From a virus, in the UHGV virus genome UHGV-1517735: DNA of 20,725 bases, one strand, 5' to 3'. Below, in pieces: positions 193 through 15,248 of this stretch. The translations under genes were made by a program, and so were the position numbers. The notes under the pieces were generated by a model, which was not told the DNA's origin, did no database searches, and was given only the letters and a program-made list of their open reading frames with translations. Positions within the stretch are counted from its first letter, which is position 1. Every line of letters starts with the position of its first letter.

Positions 193-1443
193 GTGCTTAC
201 CGATACAAAATTAAAAAACCTCAAGCCGCAGGACAAACTATACAAAGTCTCCGATCGTGACGGGCTGTATGTAGCTGTGCTTACGTCAGGTACGGTCTCG
301 TTTCGCTATGACTACCGTATCAACGGTCGCCGCGAAACACTGGTAATCGGGCAGTATGGGCGTGACGGTATCAGCCTGGCAGAAGCGCGGGAAGAACTGA
401 TTGCTGCAAAGAAGCTGCTTAAAGCAGGCCAGTCACCGGCTGCGGCTAAACGTGACGGTATCAAAAAGATTCGTGGTGCCGAGACGTTTGCGGTACATAC
501 CGACAGTTATATGAAACACGTCATCCTGGCTGACAGTACCCGCGCAATGAAACAGGCGGTGATCGACCGTGACATACTTCCGGTTCTTGGCAATAAAATG
601 ATGGCTGAAATTACCACATCGATGGTTCGTGATTTGTGTGACCGGATTGTCGAACGCGGTGGCCGGGCAACAGCAGTGCAGGCCAGGGAGATCATCAGTA
701 GCGTATACCGTCACGCCAATGACCGTGGTCATGGTTTGTTTAATCCTGCGGCTGACATTAAACCTTCGTCTATCGCCATATTTAAACCACGAGAGCGAAC
801 ACTGACACCAGAAGAAATTGGCCTGTTCTTCCGCACGCTGGATGCCATTGGTGCTATGGGCACTATGAAAATGGCTTTAAAACTGGTGCTTATCACTATG
901 GTTCGTAAGGGCGAATTCACCAATGCAACGTGGGATGAAATAGATTTTAAAAAATGGACATGGACAATTCCTCCAGACCGCATGAAGGGAAGCCGGGCGC
1001 ACGTTATTTACCTGCCTAAACAGGCACAGGATATATTGGTCGGGTTGCAGATGTGCGCTGGTGGAAGTGAATATCTGGTTCCTGGTCGTTACAATTTCCG
1101 GAAGCCATTATCTAATGCCGCGCTGAACTCTCTGATCGACAGAACGGTGAAAATAATAAATGAAGATGGTGAGCATATTCAGGACTTCACTGTACATGAT
1201 ATGCGCCGTACAGCCAGTACGTTGTTGCATGAGGCTGGTTATCCTTCAGACTGGATTGAAAAGGCTCTGGCACATGAGCAGAAAGGTGTGCGCGCCGTAT
1301 ATAACAAAGCGGAATACGCCAGACAGCGCGCCTACATGTTGCAGCAGTGGGCCGATATGATTGATTCATGGATTGACGGGGAGCATACGGATCTGATTCC
1401 GTTCTCCCCGTCGAAGTTTGAGAAGTGGATGGCGGGGGAATAA
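193..1443 (+). CDS. int: Tyrosine site-specific integrase (P4-type, DUF4102-like N-terminal domain)
   Basis: 416-aa ORF, GTG start; N-terminus MLTDTKLKNLKP..DGLY typical of P4-family integrases; C-terminal HDMRRT (HxxR) and VRAVYNKAEY catalytic Tyr region. Confidence 0.93.
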   Translation: MLTDTKLKNLKPQDKLYKVSDRDGLYVAVLTSGTVSFRYDYRINGRRETLVIGQYGRDGISLAEAREELIAAKKLLKAGQSPAAAKRDGIKKIRGAETFAVHTDSYMKHVILADSTRAMKQAVIDRDILPVLGNKMMAEITTSMVRDLCDRIVERGGRATAVQAREIISSVYRHANDRGHGLFNPAADIKPSSIAIFKPRERTLTPEEIGLFFRTLDAIGAMGTMKMALKLVLITMVRKGEFTNATWDEIDFKKWTWTIPPDRMKGSRAHVIYLPKQAQDILVGLQMCAGGSEYLVPGRYNFRKPLSNAALNSLIDRTVKIINEDGEHIQDFTVHDMRRTASTLLHEAGYPSDWIEKALAHEQKGVRAVYNKAEYARQRAYMLQQWADMIDSWIDGEHTDLIPFSPSKFEKWMAGE

Positions 1444-5157: not shown

Positions 5158-5234
5158 TTACCGTTGAGGTAATAATTATGCGTATTTGGTTTGATGTCAA
5201 TAGATATGAGTTAAAAAAATTACCCATTAGGTAA
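5158..5234 (-). promoter_or_regulatory. PL-like leftward early promoter with two flanking operators
   Basis: Operators TTACC-GTTGA-GGTAA (5158-5172) and TTACC-CATTA-GGTAA (5220-5234); minus-strand -35 TTGACA at 5195-5200; AT-rich -10 region around 5172-5180. Confidence 0.55.
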
Positions 5235-5291: not shown

Positions 5292-5876
5292 TTATTGTTT
5301 GTTTTTTTCGTTCTGGTTGATGACAAATTCAATGTAACTTTCGATCTTTGCTTTCTCAGTTTCGGGTAACAATGCGTAGCGCGAGCGGTCATAGTTGATG
5401 GTCGCAGGGTCGTGCGGGTGAATCAGTAATTCATAGCCGTGACGCCCGAATGCGGATGCAACATTCTCCAGGGTGGAAATGGAAACGCTGACCTCATTGT
5501 TTAACAGGCGGCTGATTGTCACCTGGGCGACGCCGGATGCGCGGTGAAGTTTTCCCTGTGTTGAAAGGTCGCGGCTTTCGCTCATCCAGCGTTCCAGGTT
5601 GTGAGCCGCCAGCTGACCTATATCGCTCGGGCCGACAGGCTGAAAACCTTCCTGAGAAAGCGAGCGATCGATATCAAGCCAGTTACGTGGTTTATTGGCG
5701 GCAGCTTCAATTTTTCGCGCAACCTGGTCGCCGATAACCTTCTTGCCAAGAGCCCAGCGGTTTACCAGATTTGCCTGAGTTCCAAGTTTTTCTGCCATCC
5801 GCGTCTGAACACCATTGAATTCACGGTCGATCAAGTCGTTGAGATTTTGCCTGCGGACGTCCTGGATACTTTTCAT
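5292..5876 (-). CDS. CI-like prophage repressor with two HTH domains and no LexA-like peptidase domain
   Basis: 194-aa ORF divergent from the Cro-like gene; N-terminal HTH (QTRMAEKLGTQANLVNRWALGKK) and a second HTH-like segment (SGVAQVTISRLLNNEVSVSISTLENVASAFG); no S24 peptidase signature. Confidence 0.8.
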   Translation of the reverse strand: MKSIQDVRRQNLNDLIDREFNGVQTRMAEKLGTQANLVNRWALGKKVIGDQVARKIEAAANKPRNWLDIDRSLSQEGFQPVGPSDIGQLAAHNLERWMSESRDLSTQGKLHRASGVAQVTISRLLNNEVSVSISTLENVASAFGRHGYELLIHPHDPATINYDRSRYALLPETEKAKIESYIEFVINQNEKNKQ

Positions 5877-5931: not shown

Positions 5932-6005
5932 TTACCCAACAGGTAAATGCACCTCATAGGTAACTATCCTTGATTTTTGTTACCTTATGGGTGAATATTT
6001 ATTAT
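5932..6005. promoter_or_regulatory. OR-like operator cluster (three sites) with PR-like promoter
   Basis: TTACC-CAACA-GGTAA (5932-5946), GCACC-TCATA-GGTAA (5949-5963), TTACC-TTATG-GGTGA (5980-5994); -35 TTGTTA (5977-5982), 17-bp spacer, -10 TATTAT (6000-6005) so the third operator sits inside the promoter. Confidence 0.6.
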
Positions 6006-6030: not shown

Positions 6031-6261
6031 ATGAGCGATAACGGACATTTCGATTTCAAAAAGCACTGGCTTGCACTTACTCCGGATGAGCGTGAAGCCT
6101 TCGCACAGGAAGCCGGAACGACGAGTCACTATATCCAGACTCACTTAACAGGTAAGCGCAAAATGCCAGGTAAAGTATTGATGAATGGGCTTTTTAAAGC
6201 CTGTAAAACAAGACAATGGCTGCGCTCAAAAGCAGAACTGGCATACTTCTTCTACTCATGA
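6031..6261 (+). CDS. Cro-like HTH regulator
   Basis: 76-aa ORF divergent from the repressor; HTH-like segment EAFAQEAGTTSHYIQTHLTGKRKMP. Confidence 0.65.
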   Translation: MSDNGHFDFKKHWLALTPDEREAFAQEAGTTSHYIQTHLTGKRKMPGKVLMNGLFKACKTRQWLRSKAELAYFFYS

Positions 6262-6282: not shown

Positions 6283-6307
6283 AGACCGCCACCCGGCGGT
6301 CTTTTCA
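6283..6307 (+). terminator. Rho-independent terminator after the Cro-like gene (tR1-like position)
   Basis: 8-bp stem AGACCGCC / GGCGGTCT with ACCC loop, followed by TTTCAT. Confidence 0.65.
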
Positions 6308-6316
6308 TATCTATTC

Positions 6317-6331
6317 GTACCTCAAAGGTAA
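6317..6331. promoter_or_regulatory. Operator-like palindrome GTACC-TCAAA-GGTAA (9/10)
   Basis: Immediately downstream of the post-cro terminator, upstream of the replication genes. Confidence 0.4.
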
Positions 6332-6409: not shown

Positions 6410-6622
6410 TTGAAGATAGTAACCAGAATGGAGGCCGCAAAAGCCGGGTTAAATCGCTATTTCACAGGAAAGCGGTGCCGTCACGGCCATCTCTCTGAAA
6501 GGTATGTTCTGAACGGAACATGTGTTGAATGTGCAATGAATAGCGCCAACCGCCATCGTAATGAATTTGCTTGTGCACTAAAGAGTGCAAGAGGGGAAAC
6601 CTATGGCAAGCAGCTGGATTAA
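6410..6622 (+). CDS. Hypothetical Cys/His-rich small protein (cII position); start uncertain (TTG 6410 or ATG 6428)
   Basis: 70-aa ORF; CRHGH...CVEC...C pattern; AAGGGG upstream of the TTG; overlaps the replication gene start; no similarity to lambda CII noticed. Confidence 0.45.
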   Translation: MKIVTRMEAAKAGLNRYFTGKRCRHGHLSERYVLNGTCVECAMNSANRHRNEFACALKSARGETYGKQLD

Positions 6623-7427
6623 GGTTGAAGTTATCACTCCTGATAAACCTGAAATTTTTCAGATAGCAGAAATTCTGGGTATTGATCCAGATGCTGTTCT
6701 TGGAAAGCTGGTTCGTATATGGGCATGGGCTGACCAGCAAACAATAGACGGTAACGCTGGTAGCGTTACAAAAGGAGTACTTGATAGACTCGCTTTTATT
6801 ACAGGATTTGCTGACGCCCTCATTAGCGTCGGATGGCTTGCTTATCATGACGGCAAACTAATTCTTCCAAACTTTGAGCGACATAATGGAGAATCATCGA
6901 AAAAACGTGCACTTACGAATAGAAGAGTGGCAGAGCATCGAAAACGAGTAACGCAAAAAGTAACGCCAACAGCGTTACAAAAGGAGTTACCAGAGGAAGA
7001 GGAAGATATATATAAAACCCCACACATAGCGCACGTGCGCGAGGGTGCTCCGACCAGTGAAGCGAACAGTACGCCGTTGCAGGTGGCAGAACCTGAATTT
7101 CTGGATGGCCTGAGTGAACCCATCGGGAAATTTCCGATGACAGATGGCTGGCTACCGTCGCCAGATTTTCGGCGGCGTGCTGCGCTGTGGGGAACGGCCC
7201 TGCCGGAACCGGAATTTACACCTGCTGAACTTGCTGCATTCCGGGATTACTGGATGGCTGAGGGCAAAGTGTTCACGCAGGTTCAGTGGGAACAAAAATT
7301 CGCCAGGCACGTAAATCATATCAGGGGAAAATCAAAAAATGCCGGGAAAAGCGATGAGCTTGACTGGAATAACACTGACTGGATAGAAGGGGTGTGGGAT
7401 GAAATCAACTCCAGAACTTCTCAATGA
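6603..7427 (+). CDS. Replication initiation / replisome organiser protein with C-terminal DnaT-like domain
   Basis: ATG at 6603 with RBS GAGGGG; C-terminal GKFPMTDGWLPSPDFRRRAALWGTALPEPEFTPAELAAFRDYWMAEGKVFTQVQWEQKFARH closely parallels the E. coli DnaT C-terminus; iteron-like repeats inside the gene. Confidence 0.8.
   Translation: MASSWIKVEVITPDKPEIFQIAEILGIDPDAVLGKLVRIWAWADQQTIDGNAGSVTKGVLDRLAFITGFADALISVGWLAYHDGKLILPNFERHNGESSKKRALTNRRVAEHRKRVTQKVTPTALQKELPEEEEDIYKTPHIAHVREGAPTSEANSTPLQVAEPEFLDGLSEPIGKFPMTDGWLPSPDFRRRAALWGTALPEPEFTPAELAAFRDYWMAEGKVFTQVQWEQKFARHVNHIRGKSKNAGKSDELDWNNTDWIEGVWDEINSRTSQ
6748..7040. repeat. Putative replication origin: duplicated iteron-like element inside the initiator gene
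   Basis: GTAACGC-N5-GCGTTAC-AAAAGGAGT at 6751-6780 and 6960-6990; extra GTAACGC at 6948-6954; AT-rich GATATATATAAAA and 12-bp palindrome GCGCACGTGCGC (7029-7040) follow. Confidence 0.45.
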
Positions 7428-8175
7428 GTACGATCGCTTACGTGAGCATGGTGTTGCTGTGCATGAAGAGCGGCGTGACAGCAATGGCAAAAAGGAGCAG
7501 GTTGCTAGAATTTTCAATGAACTATTTGTCCAGTTACAGGCTGCATTTCCTGCAAGCGTTTCGACCATAAGGGAGCAGAACAAACTTAATGAATTCCGTA
7601 AGCAATGGATGCTTGCGTTTCTGGAGAATGGGATCACTACAATGGAACAGGTTAACGCTGGTATGCGCCACGCCCGCGCCAGTGAATCTCCGTTCTGGCC
7701 GTCGCCAGGGCAATTCATCAAGTGGTGCAAAGACAGCAAGATGGTTCTTGGCGTCACCATTGACGATGTGATGGCGGAGTTTCACCGGTACAGCAAGGAA
7801 AAAAGTTTATATCCTGGTGGTCCCGAAAGATTCCCGTGGCGGCATCCGGTTATGTACTGGGTCGTATGTGATACCCGTCGTGCAATGTATCAGCGCCAGC
7901 TTAGCGAGAGTGAGGTTGAGAAACACGCGCGCAGGCTGCTCGATGATTGGGCGAAAAAGGTGGCTTCCGGACAGCAGATACCCGATCCGGTGATCAGCAT
8001 ACAGGCAAAGCCAGAGCCCATGAGTACACCTCCGGACACAGGGAGAGACGTTTACCATCCACCAGGGCGAAGTTTCGGGTGCATGCCTAACGCCGCCACC
8101 CTTGGGGGAATAACACCGGCGCAGTGGCTGATGGAGGAATACAGGCGGGGAAAGGCGGCAGGATTTATCAAGTAA
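7399..8175 (+). CDS. Lambda P-like replication protein (helicase loader)
   Basis: 258-aa ORF; AFPASVSTIREQNKLNEFRKQWMLAFLENGITTMEQVNAGMRHARASESPFWPSPGQFIKWCK closely matches the conserved core of lambda P as recalled. Confidence 0.88.
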   Translation: MKSTPELLNEYDRLREHGVAVHEERRDSNGKKEQVARIFNELFVQLQAAFPASVSTIREQNKLNEFRKQWMLAFLENGITTMEQVNAGMRHARASESPFWPSPGQFIKWCKDSKMVLGVTIDDVMAEFHRYSKEKSLYPGGPERFPWRHPVMYWVVCDTRRAMYQRQLSESEVEKHARRLLDDWAKKVASGQQIPDPVISIQAKPEPMSTPPDTGRDVYHPPGRSFGCMPNAATLGGITPAQWLMEEYRRGKAAGFIK

Positions 8176-8180
8176 TACCA

Positions 8181-8200
8181 GCGCGATAGCGCATTTTTTT
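8181..8200 (+). terminator. Weak terminator-like hairpin with T7 tract after the P-like gene
   Basis: GCGC GATA GCGC followed by ATTTTTTT. Confidence 0.35.
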
Positions 8201-8212
8201 ACGCCTCGATAA

Positions 8213-8289
8213 TTACCTGTTAGGTAACAAAATATTATAAACTCTATTGATTTCATGTCTTATGTGGTTTTTAATTACCTCAGAGGTAA
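8213..8289 (+). promoter_or_regulatory. Operator-flanked promoter for the downstream operon
   Basis: TTACC-TGTTA-GGTAA (8213-8227) and TTACC-TCAGA-GGTAA (8275-8289); -35 TTGATT (8247-8252), 17-bp spacer, -10 TTTAAT (8270-8275); same layout as the PL-like promoter. Confidence 0.55.
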
Positions 8290-8292
8290 ATC

Positions 8293-8637
8293 ATGAGAAA
8301 ACAGATACAGGCTCTTGGTCGACTCAAAACAGGCCAGATGAACAAAACTGAATCTGCGTATTGCCAGCACCTTGAGCTGCGTAAACGTGCAGGGGAAATC
8401 GCCTGGTATCGATTCGAGGGTATCAAGCTGCGGTTAGCTGACAACACGTTCTATACGCCAGATTTCGCTGTGATGCTCGCCACCGGAGAGATGGAACTGC
8501 ACGAAGTGAAAGGTTTCTGGACCGACGACGCCAGGGTGAAAACCAAAGTCGCCGCAGATCAGTATCCGTTCCGAATCATCGGGGTAACGGTTAAACCAAA
8601 GAAAGCAGGTGGTGGCTGGAACATCGAAGAGTTCTGA
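8293..8637 (+). CDS. DUF1064-like phage protein (putative PD-(D/E)XK-fold nuclease/resolvase)
   Basis: 114-aa ORF; YTPDFAV...ELHEVKG...KTKVAADQYP pattern as recalled for DUF1064; RBS GAGGT. Confidence 0.7.
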   Translation: MRKQIQALGRLKTGQMNKTESAYCQHLELRKRAGEIAWYRFEGIKLRLADNTFYTPDFAVMLATGEMELHEVKGFWTDDARVKTKVAADQYPFRIIGVTVKPKKAGGGWNIEEF

Positions 8638-8698: not shown

Positions 8699-9262
8699 AT
8701 GGAAAGTAATATCAAAGGGTTAGTTGCCGCCGGGCATGAGATGGCTTCGGAACTGAAAGCAGAATGTGGTGCCGTTGATATGCGCAGTGTGGCAAAGCTG
8801 ATCAGCGATTTGGCAACGCAACTGGAAGTGCAACTGGTGCGTGCTAATGCGCTGGCCGAAGACCACCAGAGAGCGACTGAGTCAATTAAGCAGGCTGATT
8901 CGGCTGTTAAGTTGGCGCACGAGAAGTTTTCGGTGCTGGCGGCGGAGAATGCGGGGCTGAAGTCTGGCGCAATGGACGAAATCAAGGTTATCAACCGTGG
9001 AGGGCAGGCATATTGCGTAAAAGATGGAGTGCAAGTTAATCCCATGTATGCAAGAGGGTGGAATGACTATCGCGCAAAGTCTCTGCAATCAGACACCCCG
9101 GCCACCGACGCATTCCTTGCTGAAATTGAACGCAAAGCAATCCGCAAGTTCATTAACAGCATTGAACACATCCTGCGTGACAAGTTGTCACCGTATGACA
9201 CCGAAGAGATGCTTGAAGCTATGCGTATTTTTCTGGAAGAACAGGGAGGTGAGCAAAAATGA
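8699..9262 (+). CDS. Hypothetical protein (187 aa), first gene of accessory operon
   Basis: RBS GCGAGGG before ATG 8699; coiled-coil-like N-terminal half; no recognisable domain. Confidence 0.7.
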   Translation: MESNIKGLVAAGHEMASELKAECGAVDMRSVAKLISDLATQLEVQLVRANALAEDHQRATESIKQADSAVKLAHEKFSVLAAENAGLKSGAMDEIKVINRGGQAYCVKDGVQVNPMYARGWNDYRAKSLQSDTPATDAFLAEIERKAIRKFINSIEHILRDKLSPYDTEEMLEAMRIFLEEQGGEQK

Positions 9263-9564
9263 CGATCACAAAACAACGGGTAGAAGAAATCATATCCCGC
9301 ATTGAAATGTATGGGCATGGCGCAGGGTATACCGCCGAAGAGGTTTATGACCTGGCTGTACTGGCGCTGAATTTATCAAATATCGCAAACCTGAAGCGAT
9401 ACGAGCTTGATATGGGTGGTTGTGACTCGTGCGGTCAGGATTGTGGCGCTGACATGACTGAAGATTCTGATGGCGATTATGTCCTGTTTGATGACGTAGT
9501 TAAGTTGTTTGAGTTTGATACATTCGAAAGCCCAGCAAAGGAGGCAACCAGTGAGCGAAATTAA
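9259..9564 (+). CDS. Hypothetical acidic protein (101 aa) with CDSCGQDC motif
   Basis: ATG overlaps upstream stop (ATGA); no recognisable domain. Confidence 0.6.
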   Translation: MTITKQRVEEIISRIEMYGHGAGYTAEEVYDLAVLALNLSNIANLKRYELDMGGCDSCGQDCGADMTEDSDGDYVLFDDVVKLFEFDTFESPAKEATSERN

Positions 9565-10249
9565 TTACCAGGCACTGCGTGAGGCGGCGGAACGTGCAAT
9601 TCCGGCAATGGAACGCCTGTTAATGTTGCTAGTTGATGATGCTCTGATAAGTGAACAGGAACTTAAAGATTACGGTGTGGATATTGATGCGCTCAACGCC
9701 TTCAAATTTCTGGCCGGACCAGAAACCGTGCTGGCGCTTCTGGATGAACGGGAAAGAAACCAGCAATACATCAAACGCCGCGACCAGGAGAACGAGGAGA
9801 TTGCGCTAACGGTAGGGAAACTGCGTGTTGAGCTTGAAGCAGCAAAATCAAAACTCAACGAGCAGCGTGAATATTACGAGGGAGTAATCGCGGATGGAAG
9901 TAAGCGTATTGCTGAACTGGAGAAAAGCGAAGAGCAACTCATCAATGAGCGTGACCATGCTGAGTCTGCTTTAGATGATATGTACTTTGCAGCAACCGGT
10001 AACAGGCCGGAGTGGAGCAACTGGTTCGGCTTTTCAGATGCTGTCGATGCCGTGGTTGACAGAATTGCTGATTTAGAAGCTAAACAGTCATCGCCAGTAG
10101 TGCCGGAAGGACTGGTTAAAGCAGTGCGCTTCTATGAGCAGGTTAAGCGTGAAAATCCGCCAGTCGAAACCGGAGCATGGAAAGACGCTGTTGACTGGGT
10201 GCTCAAAGAGGCCTGCCAGGTTGTAAACATTGGTACCAAAGGAGATTGA
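9551..10249 (+). CDS. Hypothetical coiled-coil protein (232 aa)
   Basis: GTG at 9551 preceded by AAGGAGG; long heptad-like central region; C-terminal PVVPE module shared with the next gene. Confidence 0.6.
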   Translation: MSEINYQALREAAERAIPAMERLLMLLVDDALISEQELKDYGVDIDALNAFKFLAGPETVLALLDERERNQQYIKRRDQENEEIALTVGKLRVELEAAKSKLNEQREYYEGVIADGSKRIAELEKSEEQLINERDHAESALDDMYFAATGNRPEWSNWFGFSDAVDAVVDRIADLEAKQSSPVVPEGLVKAVRFYEQVKRENPPVETGAWKDAVDWVLKEACQVVNIGTKGD

Positions 10250-10250
10250 T

Positions 10251-10631
10251 ATGAGCACTTTTACCGACAAAGAACTGATTAAAGAAATCAAAGAGCGCAT
10301 AGGCAGTCTGGACGTGCGAGACGATATTGAGCGCCGTGCTTATGAAATTGCTCTGGCATCACTGGAAGCAGAGCCGGTGGCGTGGCTTCATTCAGACAAT
10401 GGCTTAGGTATTCCGGCAATAACGAGGAGTAAAAACATTGCTGACAGTTGGTTATCAAAGGGTTGGTATGTTCAGCCGCTATATATAGCCAAGCCAGTGC
10501 CAGTAGTACCGGAAGAAAAACCAATGCCGAACCCTCTTAGCATGTACGCGGTTGATGCTGTTGCCGCTATTGCAGAGGTGAGAGGCTGGAACGCCTGCCG
10601 TGCCGTCATGCTTCAGGGAGATAAATCATGA
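10251..10631 (+). CDS. Hypothetical protein (126 aa), shares C-terminal PVVPE module with upstream gene
   Basis: ATG 10251 preceded by AAGGAG; AKPVPVVPEE parallels AKQSSPVVPEG in the upstream protein. Confidence 0.65.
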   Translation: MSTFTDKELIKEIKERIGSLDVRDDIERRAYEIALASLEAEPVAWLHSDNGLGIPAITRSKNIADSWLSKGWYVQPLYIAKPVPVVPEEKPMPNPLSMYAVDAVAAIAEVRGWNACRAVMLQGDKS

Positions 10632-11245
10632 TTAATCGTACCAAGCTGGAGCACATCCTCGAATATGCCAGACAGCAGAGGCGCTTTGGTCAGCATTGCA
10701 AAATTCCGCCAGGAGATATGGTTGAAATCGTGGAAATGGCCATGCGTAAGGCTGGCAACCCTCATGTAACCCCGGCTCGCCTGCCTGGTGGTTTCACCAT
10801 TGAGGATGCGAAGGCGTTACATGAAGACCTGGTACGCAGCCACATAAGCCAGGCTTTAAGTGGCGAAAATATGAAAAAGAACGATCGCGATGCTGATTTG
10901 CGCTGGATTCATGGCGTAATAGTTCAGGCAGCGTGGTTTGTAAAAGCATCACTGGAGCAAAATGCGCTATCGGGCAACTCTCCGGTAACTCCGGATGGTT
11001 GGGTTATAGTGCCGAAGAAACTAACCGCTGAGAACGGCGCTAAGGGTGTGCTATCCGGTGAATTTTCAGAAACTACGTTTATAAGCTGCCCGGAATGCTT
11101 TGGCGATGATGATTGCGATACCTGTGACGGGAGCGGACGAATTGAAATTAAAGTACCAGTCACGTGGACGACCATAAAATCCATCTGGGATAAAGGTATT
11201 GCGCATTTTGCAGCAAAACCGCCGCAGGAGGTTAACCGTGGCTAA
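10628..11245 (+). CDS. Hypothetical protein with DnaJ-type zinc-finger motif (205 aa)
   Basis: CPECFGDDDCDTCDGSG fits the CxxCxG...CxxCxGxG pattern of DnaJ cysteine-rich domains; start overlaps upstream stop. Confidence 0.7.
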   Translation: MINRTKLEHILEYARQQRRFGQHCKIPPGDMVEIVEMAMRKAGNPHVTPARLPGGFTIEDAKALHEDLVRSHISQALSGENMKKNDRDADLRWIHGVIVQAAWFVKASLEQNALSGNSPVTPDGWVIVPKKLTAENGAKGVLSGEFSETTFISCPECFGDDDCDTCDGSGRIEIKVPVTWTTIKSIWDKGIAHFAAKPPQEVNRG

Positions 11246-11519
11246 CCTGCAACTTGCCGTCAAAGGTGAATACTTCGATGCCATGATTCGCGGGGAGAAA
11301 ACGGAAGAGTATCGCCTGTGTAATGACTACTGGAAAAAGCGCCTCGTTAACCGTAAGCATGACCGCCTGATTATCACAAAGGGATATCCGAAGCGCGACG
11401 ATTCCAGCCGCAGAATAGACGTCCCGTATGAAGGGTATGAAATCAAGACAATCACACATCCGCACTTCGGCGATAAACCGGTAAAGGTGTTCGCGATAAA
11501 GGTAAATATTGATGGCTAA
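11238..11519 (+). CDS. ASCH-domain-like protein (93 aa)
   Basis: GTG at 11238 preceded by AGGAGG; LQLAVKGEYFDAMIRGEKTEEYR resembles the ASCH N-terminal strand-turn motif. Confidence 0.6.
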   Translation: MANLQLAVKGEYFDAMIRGEKTEEYRLCNDYWKKRLVNRKHDRLIITKGYPKRDDSSRRIDVPYEGYEIKTITHPHFGDKPVKVFAIKVNIDG

Positions 11520-11850
11520 ATCAGCAGCAGAGCGCAAAGCCGCTCAGAGAGCCAGACAAGCTGCATCTGGTGTGCGTAAACTGGAGATTGTGCTTGATGC
11601 TCAGGAAATTGAAATGCTGGAGCGTAACTGTGCCACGCGTCGCCCCGGGCGTGCGCCTTACGAATTTGGTGAGTATATAGCGTTACTGATCCGCCAGGAT
11701 GATGCACGCGTGCGCGGGCGTATAAAATCGATCAGCAGAAAACGTTGCGGTAAGTGCGGAGAGAGAGTTCCAGTTAATTCATGCCCGTGTAATGGTGACT
11801 CGCAATGCTGGGTGACTAAAGGCTGGCATGAAACGAAATTAATAGTGTGA
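11512..11850 (+). CDS. Cys-rich zinc-finger protein (112 aa), candidate late-gene regulator
   Basis: Basic N-terminal segment; C-terminal CGKCG...CPCNGDSQC; last gene before the terminator and operators upstream of terminase. Confidence 0.6.
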   Translation: MAKSAAERKAAQRARQAASGVRKLEIVLDAQEIEMLERNCATRRPGRAPYEFGEYIALLIRQDDARVRGRIKSISRKRCGKCGERVPVNSCPCNGDSQCWVTKGWHETKLIV

Positions 11851-11897: not shown

Positions 11898-11925
11898 TGC
11901 CGCCAACTATGGCGGCTTTATTTTG
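11898..11925 (+). terminator. Rho-independent terminator upstream of terminase genes (tR-prime-like position)
   Basis: GCCGCC / GGCGGC stem with AACTAT loop, followed by TTTATTTTG. Confidence 0.65.
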
Positions 11926-11934
11926 CATGGTACT

Positions 11935-11967
11935 ATTACCACAACGGTAACTATTACCACGGTGGTT
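11935..11967. promoter_or_regulatory. Two operator-like palindromes immediately upstream of the terminase small subunit
   Basis: TTACC-ACAAC-GGTAA (11935-11949) and TTACC-ACGGT-GGTTA (11953-11967), the second abutting the start codon. Confidence 0.5.
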
Positions 11968-12564
11968 ATGATGCCTGCTGAACCTAAAACCTATAAACGC
12001 AAATCAACGCAATTTAAGCCACTAACAGCAATGCAGGAGGCTTATTGCCAGTCATACATCAAAACGCCTGAAAACCAGACTCAGGCAGCGATTAATGCAG
12101 GATTCTCCCCAAATACAGCGGCAGTTAAAGCCAGTGTCATGATGCGCGATGAACGCATTCAAAAACGGATTGCCGAGTTGATGGAGGAGCGCAACAAACG
12201 AATGCGCGTCAGTGCTGATTACGTTCTCATGCGCCTGGTGGAGATCGACCAGATGGACGTGATCGACATCCTCAACGACGATGGGAGCCTTAAGCCAATC
12301 CGCGAGTGGCCGAAAATCTGGCGCACTACGCTTAGTGGCTTTGATCTGTCATCGACCATCATGAACATGAACGAGGATTCGATAGAGACAATCCTCAAAA
12401 AAATTAAATGGCCTGACAAGGTGAAGAACCTCGAACTGATTGGTAAGCACGTCGACGTCAACGCATTCAAAGAACGCCTGGATGTTAATGTGAATGTGAC
12501 AATTGCTGATCGCATAGCAGCAGCCAGGAAGCGACTCAAAGAACGTCAGGATGGCAATCAGTGA
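11968..12564 (+). CDS. Terminase small subunit (start uncertain; upstream in-frame ATGs rejected because they span the terminator)
   Basis: HTH-like segment TQAAINAGFSPNTAAVKASVMMRDERIQKRI typical of small terminase subunits; directly upstream of and overlapping the large subunit. Confidence 0.7.
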   Translation: MMPAEPKTYKRKSTQFKPLTAMQEAYCQSYIKTPENQTQAAINAGFSPNTAAVKASVMMRDERIQKRIAELMEERNKRMRVSADYVLMRLVEIDQMDVIDILNDDGSLKPIREWPKIWRTTLSGFDLSSTIMNMNEDSIETILKKIKWPDKVKNLELIGKHVDVNAFKERLDVNVNVTIADRIAAARKRLKERQDGNQ

Positions 12565-14744: not shown

Positions 14745-14821
14745 TGGCGTGGCATGCAGGATTCGAACCTGCGACCAACCGCTTAGAAGGCGGTTGCTCT
14801 GTCCAACTGAGCTAATGCCAC
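14745..14821 (-). tRNA. tRNA-Arg, anticodon UCU (argU-like, phage-borne)
   Basis: 77-nt cloverleaf read on the minus strand: acceptor GTGGCAT/ATGCCAC, D-stem GCTC/GAGC, anticodon stem ACCGC/GCGGT with loop CUUCUAA, T-stem GCAGG/CCTGC with TTCGAAT loop, encoded CCA. Confidence 0.92.
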
Positions 14822-15143
14822 AACGCTGAGAGCACTTAGCCTGTTAAGGCGCCACACTTTGTCGCGGCTCCATAAATGCTCTCATCGTTGTACCCTCGTC
14901 TCTTCCGAGGCGTCACACCGAATCGCCGGGATGGTGAATCCCCGTGCGCGGAATAAAACCGCTCGACTTGCACATTCCGGCTACCTGGTTCGTTTGCCCG
15001 AGCAAGGGAGGGTGCCCCTTAAACGTATCCAGACCGCTATCGGCGCATGTGCCAGACGCCGTACTGCTCAAAATAAAAGCTCACTCCACCTGTTCAATTT
15101 AACGACAAGCCAGTCAGGTTAGTAACCGGAATGAACTCTTTGG

Positions 15144-15158
15144 TTACCTGAAAGGTAA
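15144..15158. promoter_or_regulatory. Operator-like palindrome TTACC-TGAAA-GGTAA upstream of the head module
   Basis: Perfect match to the recurring palindrome; intergenic. Confidence 0.5.
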
Positions 15159-15248
15159 TAATTTGTGCGTTAAATGTCAACTACCTACGATAAATAAATC
15201 ATATGTGGTTAAATTGGTAATAATTTAATTGCGTACGGAGTCATTGAT

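Follow-up and report, generated by a model that had tools for sequence, protein, structure and literature searches.

The spacer between the lambda-P-like replication gene and the DUF1064 gene of the virus genome UHGV-1517735 (positions 8181-8292 of the 20,725-nucleotide stretch that was analyzed here as a whole and is called the window below) raises the question of whether the genes that follow it possess a repressed promoter of their own or are reached by transcription from PR. An earlier reading of the sequence alone had described a terminator-like hairpin and, downstream of it, a promoter flanked by two perfect operators in the geometry of the PL-like promoter, and had proposed that the operon beginning with a DUF1064-like nuclease gene is gated independently of PR. 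In the present work, this proposal was followed up by comparison of the spacer with the other operators of the window, with complete genomes of related phages, and with a large set of similar cassettes from viral contigs. The observation on which the sequence-only reading was based is confirmed by our analyses, and its interpretation is supported in every part that is accessible to computational testing. Hence, it is likely, in our view, that positions 8181-8292 constitute a self-contained, repressor-gated boundary between transcription units of a Uetakevirus prophage.

Identity of the phage and organization of the window

The window shares 97-99% identity with the temperate podophages vB_EcoP_ZX5 (ZX5 below), HEMP4, and TL-2011b along most of its sequence, and with phiV10 along part of it only. 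By these sequence comparisons, the window is identified as belonging to a temperate phage of E. coli of the epsilon15/phiV10 type, in the genus Uetakevirus (epsilon15 group). The gene order and the features that are relevant to the spacer are summarized in Table 1.

Table 1. Features of the window that are discussed in the text, with positions counted from its first nucleotide.
Feature	Position	Strand	Description
Integrase gene	193-1443		First in the gene order, followed by the leftward early operon
PL-like cassette	5158..5234	-	Operator, 19 bp, TTGACA, 17 bp, AATTAT overlapping the second operator
Repressor gene	5292..5876	-	194 aa; homolog of SPC32H Rep
Small gene at the cro position	6031-6261		
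DnaT-like gene and lambda-P-like gene	6585-8175		Replication module 5' of the spacer
Lambda-P-like replication gene	7399..8175	+	Pfam Phage_lambda_P, E 5e-56; stop codon at 8173-8175
Terminator-like hairpin	8181..8200	+	GCGC (8181-8184), GATA loop, GCGC (8189-8192), A, T7 (8194-8200)
Operator 1 (distal)	8213..8227		TTACCTGTTAGGTAA; perfect palindrome; homologous epsilon15 site is annotated
A/T-rich stretch	8228..8246	+	19 bp from operator 1 to the -35 hexamer; same length as in PL
Leftward promoter-like match	8234..8261	-	AAGACA (8261-8256), 16 bp, TATAAT (8239-8234); between the operators
Candidate -35 hexamer	8247..8252	+	TTGATT, 4/6 of consensus; followed by a 17-bp spacer and the -10
Candidate -10 hexamer	8270..8275	+	TTTAAT, 5/6 of consensus; T instead of A at position 2
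Operator 2 (proximal)	8275..8289		TTACCTCAGAGGTAA; perfect palindrome; covers the expected start site at ~8282
DUF1064 gene	8293..8637	+	114 aa; predicted PD-(D/E)XK nuclease
Same-strand gene run 3' of the DUF1064 gene	8699..11850	+	Eae-like, Ead/Ea22-like and unknown genes (ORFs, Pfam, co-linear ZX5 annotation)
Strong terminator	11899-11916		Closes the accessory gene run; terminase and head genes beyond

Sequence elements of the spacer

The hairpin that had been noticed after the P-like gene is present on the plus strand, but it is weak, with a stem of only four G-C pairs followed by T7 and a folding energy of -8.4 kcal/mol (z -2.0), whereas the terminators at 6283 and 11899 reach -15 and -16. 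Because the terminator scan of the window requires at least five pairs, the hairpin does not appear in its list. The homologous hairpin is labeled as a putative terminator in the GenBank record of phiV10, and we regard the element as a weak, intrinsic-terminator-like structure.

Downstream of the hairpin, two perfect 15-bp palindromes, TTACCTnnnAGGTAA, are located at 8213-8227 and 8275-8289, and the hexamers TTGATT and TTTAAT, separated by 17 bp, can be read directly between them, exactly as they had been described. The -10 hexamer carries a T at its second position, which accounts for the absence of this hexamer pair from the list returned by a consensus promoter scan of the window. The sequence was also inspected for an extended -10 (TGn), and it contains no register in which a TG is properly placed 5' of a usable hexamer. 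The same TTGATT hexamer occurs in the PR region as well (5970-5975). The A/T-rich DNA that separates operator 1 from the -35 hexamer could possibly serve as an UP element or as bendable DNA within a loop. Besides the short stem and the T at position 2 of the -10, a third detail of the earlier description has to be corrected, viz. the distance of 3 bp, which had been given as that between the second operator and the ribosome-binding site; it is the end of operator 2 and the ATG at 8293 that are 3 bp apart, and the Shine-Dalgarno sequence GAGG (8283-8286) lies inside the operator. The notion that the operator 2 palindrome folds in read-through mRNA and thereby hides the ribosome-binding site was rejected, as the segment 8270-8300 folds with -4.6 kcal/mol (z -1.2) and leaves the palindrome unused.

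The proposed likeness to the PL-like promoter is borne out in full. The PL-like promoter was matched by the promoter scan at 5200..5172 (10/12), with operators at 5158 and 5220, and both cassettes present the same order of operator, 19 bp, -35, 17 bp, and -10, in which the final T of the -10 hexamer serves at the same time as the opening T of the second operator. The centers of the two operators are 62 bp apart in both cases, and the register of the spacer cassette is identical to that of PL base for base. The two sequences are identical at 46 of 77 positions, and at 26 of 57 when the operator half-sites are set aside.

A separate similarity involves the octamer ATGTGGTT, which is found at 8262-8269 and at 15203-15210 and at each place lies directly 5' of a -10-like A/T hexamer. 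The copy at 15203-15210 precedes the portal operon, and the pattern T.TGG.T is conserved across the cassette family that is described below.

A genus-wide set of repressor operators

In the window, the operator sequence TTACCTNNNAGGTAA is matched perfectly at three positions (8213, 8275, and 15144), and if up to three mismatches are allowed the number of matches is 16, compared with 5.0 expected, a count that is reached in none of 100 shuffles. For the core TTACC-N5-GGTAA, with at most one mismatch, 11 sites are present in the window (0.75 expected), and the two sites of the spacer show zero mismatches to it. To the window were added the complete genomes of epsilon15, SPC32H, Tyrion, and BUCT554 and the circular record of ZX5, and each of these six Uetakevirus members was found to contain 11-18 copies of the core with at most one mismatch, where about one is expected. 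In ZX5 all 14 sites are intergenic, and the non-coding part of that genome amounts to 8.6%.

The sites occupy homologous places in the six genomes. PL has two or three of them and PR has three, two precede the small terminase gene, and further sites precede the portal operon, the lysis genes, and int or lie in the tail-fibre/antirepressor region. The pair that precedes the gene following the replication module is 62 bp apart in every one of the six genomes; the cassette region is only 74-80% identical between genomes, yet the 62-bp pair is kept. In the epsilon15 GenBank record (NC_004775), seven of the homologous places are annotated as 'protein_bind: repressor', and one of these (35906-35922) is the homolog of operator 1 of the window. 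At this locus, the same record carries no annotation of the proximal operator (35969-35983), of promoter hexamers, or of a terminator. The epsilon15 site at 35969-35983 is a perfect operator, TTACCTGAGAGGTAA, at a distance of 62 bp from the annotated one and with 3 bp between it and the start codon of the resolvase gene downstream. The sequence comparisons support the membership of the two spacer sites in a genus-wide set of Rep operators of the form ATTACC-N5-GGTAAT, and the distribution of this set suggests direct control by the repressor of almost every transcription unit, as is annotated for epsilon15.

Further operator-like sequences of the window include a perfect site at 15144-15158 upstream of the portal operon, a pair at 11936-11950 and 11954-11968 that is 18 bp apart and lies between the strong terminator and the small terminase gene, a site at 6317-6331 after the terminator that follows the gene at the cro position, and a site at 136-150 upstream of int.

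Our survey of the literature covered phiV10 and epsilon15, the repressors of Uetakevirus, and SPC32H, and did not take in the primary epsilon15 genome paper (said to be that of Kropinski et al. in 2007) or the primary papers on the SPC32H Rep/Ant lysis-lysogeny switch (reportedly those of Kim and Ryu in 2013 and Kim et al. in 2016, with PDB entries 5D50 and 5D4Z); within this range, we found neither a mapping of the operators nor any footprint, reporter measurement, or mapped transcript 5' end for 8181-8292. The multi-site repressor design, including the distal site, is already annotated for epsilon15, as is the terminator for phiV10, and the nuclease that is discussed below has long had a superfamily assignment. 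No annotation was found for the proximal operator, for the hexamers of the promoter, for the register shared with PL, or for the mosaic exchange that takes place at the cassette.

Conservation of the cassette and exchange of the adjoining genes

Viral contigs were searched for two operators with 47 bp between them, and this search yielded 166 cassettes at about 80 loci, corresponding to 122 distinct sequences. The cassettes fall into two families, viz. a PL type (T-run, TTGACA, 17 bp, AATTAT) and the type that is found in the spacer (AAAATAT, TTGAWW, 17 bp, TT(T/A)AAT), which has 60-65 distinct members. Within the latter family, several blocks are near-invariant: the hairpin GCGC-N4-GCGC-A-T7, of which only the loop varies (65 distinct cassettes), the operator half-sites ATTACC...GGTAAT, the sequence CTATTGA, and a 3' block of the form T.TGG.TTT.AATTACCT.AG.GGTAAA.CATG. 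The -10 hexamer TT(T/A)AAT is held at a fixed 17-bp register, and the 19-bp stretch is partly conserved as AAAAtAT...CTA. The center of operator 1 varies freely, and that of operator 2 is held to AGAGG or AGGGG, a constraint that is expected if this operator doubles as the ribosome-binding site. The search pattern required both operators, and the conservation of the operators within the set of about 60 cassettes is therefore circular, whereas that of the hexamers, the hairpin, and the ribosome-binding site is not; sets that are independent of the motif are provided by the six whole genomes and by 32 records derived from BLAST searches.

The members of the family differ in the quality of their hexamers. 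A T at position 2 of the -10 in every plausible register is a property of the subtype to which the window belongs (32 of 60 cassettes), and the epsilon15-type cassettes (12/60) carry TTGAAA, 18 bp, and TAAATT, which pass strict promoter criteria.

The genes on the two sides of the cassette have been exchanged. The upstream gene, which always lies on the same strand, has at least five unrelated C-termini among 59 related loci. The downstream gene encodes a DUF1064 protein in most relatives and a RuvC-type resolvase of 153-154 aa in about fifteen, among them epsilon15, Tyrion, and PAT1. One and the same cassette subtype can be followed by either gene (RuvC-type in epsilon15, DUF1064 in SPC32H), which places the point of exchange at the start codon. 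As a related observation, the window segment 8293-8637 stands to epsilon15 35987-36451 and to positions 37345-37809 of another co-linear phage in the relation of a non-orthologous replacement. The cassette (window 8170-8300) was also sought in 5426 complete E. coli genomes, of which 355 contain it, among them those of Combat2C1 and SF-468, nearly always as a single, chromosomal copy.

A homolog of the SPC32H repressor

A phmmer search against PDB with the repressor of the window gave a full-length match to the crystal structure 5D50 'Repressor' with an E of 4e-42 over residues 1-190, and the identity to SPC32H Rep, as counted by hand in the phmmer alignment, is about 40-45%. The co-linear CDS of ZX5, which lies in a region of 99.6% identity, is annotated as 'repressor', and its overexpression has been reported to block lytic growth and to lower the transcripts of lysis genes by more than 99.9% (PMC9782041). 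The same study predicted four promoters, for which no coordinates are given in its text or legends (PMC9782041). In a published summary, the Rep of SPC32H is described as a tetramer on DNA, of which one is enough for repression, with DNA-binding pairs that are drawn from different dimers and with a small antirepressor that releases it (PMC9638917). A review-type comparison with other regulators states that the C-terminal domain of SPC32H Rep folds like that of tetrameric regulators which form loops and that its two middle-domain pairs are ~100 Å apart, and it notes that the way in which this protein represses has not been characterized well (PMC9986798).

The strongest Pfam helix-turn-helix match of the window repressor is HTH_3 at residues 106-147, and this match coincides with the middle dimerization domain as it is described for SPC32H Rep. 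The N-terminal DNA-binding region (residues 21-61) gives a weak match of the YdaS type only.

The predicted nuclease of the DUF1064 gene

The assignment of the downstream gene to DUF1064 is borne out by a domain search, in which the product matches PF06356 with 31.0 bits against a gathering threshold of 24.7 (E 3.7e-7); its homologs are named DUF1064, and the family comprises 4659 representatives at E up to 0.001. In an alignment of 80 sequences, no variation is seen at E20, D57, and G74, and E71 and K73 come close to this (at least 90% conserved). D57 forms part of the motif YTPDF, and E71 and K73 of HEVKG, and these motifs align weakly with the active site of T7 endonuclease I (E 0.22). A structural model based on the 80-sequence alignment has a pLDDT of 87.9, compared with 35.7 for a single-sequence model, which is useless, and a Foldseek search with the former returned nuclease folds at high probability, none of them below an E of 1e-3. 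By its sequence motifs and its modeled fold, which is of the restriction-endonuclease-like alpha/beta kind and closest to that of the Hjc resolvases, the product is a PD-(D/E)XK nuclease; the assignment of DUF1064 to this superfamily was published in 2005 (PMC1189080). The junction-resolving enzymes of the PD-(D/E)XK class, viz. Hjc and T7 endonuclease I, are among the nearest known systems, and the product is most likely a resolvase of Holliday junctions or branched DNA. The best argument for this role is an indirect one, namely that in relatives the same slot is occupied by a RuvC-type resolvase.

Promoter activity and alternative explanations

From the sequence, we infer that TTGATT, 17 bp, and TTTAAT at 8247-8275 make up a rightward promoter of the sigma-70 type, since the hexamers have been conserved at a fixed register even though the genes on both sides were exchanged. 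The hairpin upstream is weak, so that some read-through from PR is likely, and the independence from PR that had been claimed for this operon may be partial.

The same weakness gives room to a different explanation, in which no promoter is present and the operators act as repressor roadblocks or loop anchors behind a leaky terminator. Bound repressor would then keep polymerases that come from PR or from a host promoter out of the accessory block in the lysogen, and the lytic expression of the DUF1064 gene would depend on PR transcripts that pass the hairpin. In favor of such an arrangement, the terminator-like element has a stem of only 4 bp and a z of -2.0, other single operators are located directly 3' of terminators (6317, 11936/11954), and the -10 hexamer, which was not called by the scan, lacks the A at position 2 that is the most critical base for sigma-70. 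Furthermore, the upstream gene has the same orientation in all of the 59 related loci, and hence there is no context that forces the presence of a promoter. A pure roadblock, however, has no need of a conserved -35 hexamer at a fixed distance, and what is near-invariant in this family, viz. CTATTGA and TT(T/A)AAT, stands exactly at the register of the PL promoter, with an A/T-rich stretch 5' of the -35 as in PL. The epsilon15-type members, moreover, have a canonical hexamer pair at this place. On balance, a cassette without a promoter is unlikely. An upstream gene on the opposite strand, which would have been a context of the forcing kind, was also sought and occurs in 0 of the 59 loci.

It has also to be considered that the operator pair controls a leftward promoter, either alone or back-to-back with the rightward one, from which an RNA antisense to the P-like gene would be made in the manner of lambda oop, with operator 1 lying over its start site. 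The leftward match between the operators has the top score in the promoter scan of the window (10/12), and AAGACA, 16 bp, and TAGAAT or TATAAT are present in 22 of 60 distinct cassettes. These cassettes, however, are confined to the phiV10-type subfamily; the corresponding -10 reads GCGCAT in cassettes of the epsilon15 type, and positions -11 and -12 are variable across the family. Neither a minus-strand terminator nor a small ORF is present nearby in the ORF list and the terminator scan, and A/T-rich regions are prone to matches of this kind, the scan of the whole window having given 13 matches compared with 22 in shuffles. Control of a leftward promoter by the operator pair is thus quite improbable, and as a feature of the whole family the leftward promoter was rejected, given its restriction to the 22 phiV10-type cassettes.

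Lastly, the view that palindromes and hexamers arose in the spacer by chance and have no regulatory role can appeal to nothing except the general A/T richness of the spacer, and its probability is negligible in view of the shuffles, none of which reaches the observed motif count, the excess of sites (11-18 per genome where about one is expected), the recurrence of these sites in homologous intergenic places of six genomes, and the spacing of exactly 62 bp in 6/6 of them.

Proposed mechanism

The repressed rightward promoter, which we consider to be the best explanation of the locus, leads to the following model. The weak intrinsic terminator would end, or at least attenuate, the transcript of the replication genes. 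The promoter would start transcription at ~8282 and produce a leader of 11 nt with the Shine-Dalgarno sequence at its 5' end. Rep would bind to the two palindromic operators, whose separation of 62 bp corresponds to ~5.9 helical turns, so that both would face the same side of the DNA. Rep at the proximal operator would cover the final base of the -10, the expected start site, and the ribosome-binding site, all of which this operator overlaps, and the distal operator is located 19 bp 5' of the -35. In the lysogen, one Rep tetramer would probably occupy both sites and form a small loop that shuts the promoter, with the -35 region looped out, and the bound Rep would also stop polymerases that read through the weak terminator. 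Upon induction, an antirepressor would dismantle Rep and allow the promoter to fire, and the DUF1064 nuclease and the accessory genes up to 11850 would be expressed.

A broader interpretation, which we put forward tentatively and hold to be doubtful, is that the cassette is a portable insulator module, clamped by one Rep tetramer in a 62-bp micro-loop, that also acts as a recombination joint. The layout of such a module may be that of terminator, operator, 19 bp, -35, 17 bp, and a -10 that overlaps the second operator, with copies at PL and in the spacer, and the joint may be the place where DUF1064 and RuvC-type genes on the one side and unrelated replication modules on the other are swapped, with the start codon as the exact point of exchange. 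The module of the phiV10-type subfamily may also include a leftward promoter, placed back-to-back with the rightward one and controlled by this clamp as well.

Comparison with known systems

Among the phages of the same genus, epsilon15 shares with the window the consensus ATTACC-N5-GGTAAT, a site between the replication and resolvase genes, and a cassette that can be aligned as a whole; it differs in having a RuvC-type resolvase downstream and a DnaT-like rather than a P-like gene upstream. SPC32H has an operator pair that is 62 bp apart (35972 and 36034) before its DUF1064 gene and a homologous repressor, which, according to the published summary, is a tetramer on DNA and is countered by a small antirepressor (PMC9638917). 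The antirepressor of the ZX5 type is unlike this small protein in being larger and belonging to the Bro family (PMC9782041).

The resemblance to the PL/OL and PR/OR regions of lambda consists in palindromic operators that overlap an early lytic promoter, in divergent PL and PR promoters that flank the repressor gene, and in the replication genes, which include a P homolog. In lambda, however, each promoter has three adjacent operators and only two lytic promoters are repressed, and the genes of the nin region (among them those for the Rap and RusA-type resolvases) are reached from PR by N antitermination and have no repressed promoter of their own. The window, in contrast, has operators before nearly every transcription unit, and a pair of them brackets the candidate promoter at 62 bp. 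The C1 operators of P1 and the gp71 stoperators of mycobacteriophage L5 are other examples in which one repressor acts at many sites in short intergenic regions and silences several units directly. Those sites are asymmetric, and the stoperators of L5 depend on orientation and block elongation, whereas the sites of the window are symmetric and are paired around a promoter at PL and, by our interpretation, in the spacer.

A parallel for the suggested loop is provided by Rco of pLS20, a TetDloop tetramer that loops two operators 75 bp apart which flank a promoter (PMC9986798). Like SPC32H Rep, Rco combines an N-terminal DNA-binding domain with a p53-like tetramerization domain (PMC9986798). Rco acts through arrays of direct repeats that are bound by several tetramers, unlike the 62-bp pair of single palindromes in the window, at which Rep would form the proposed loop.

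The silencing of these common prophages would thus differ from that of lambda in that nearly every transcription unit appears to own a site for the repressor, and the block of accessory and resolvase genes appears to have an operator-bracketed promoter instead of antitermination from PR. This information should be useful for the annotation of prophages, for the engineering of reporter phages of the phiV10 type, and for the design of work on repression by tetrameric Rep. The cassette is real but ordinary, as its essentials are annotated for the type phage of the genus, and no novel type of biology follows from it.

Other features of the window

An Rfam scan of the window returned nothing except a tRNA, and this gene, tRNA-Arg(TCT), was identified by both ARAGORN and Rfam at 14745-14821 on the minus strand. 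Between the tRNA-Arg side and the operator of the portal operon lie ~320 nt without an annotated gene (14822-15143). The corresponding region of the epsilon15 record bears annotated sites for RNase III and IHF.
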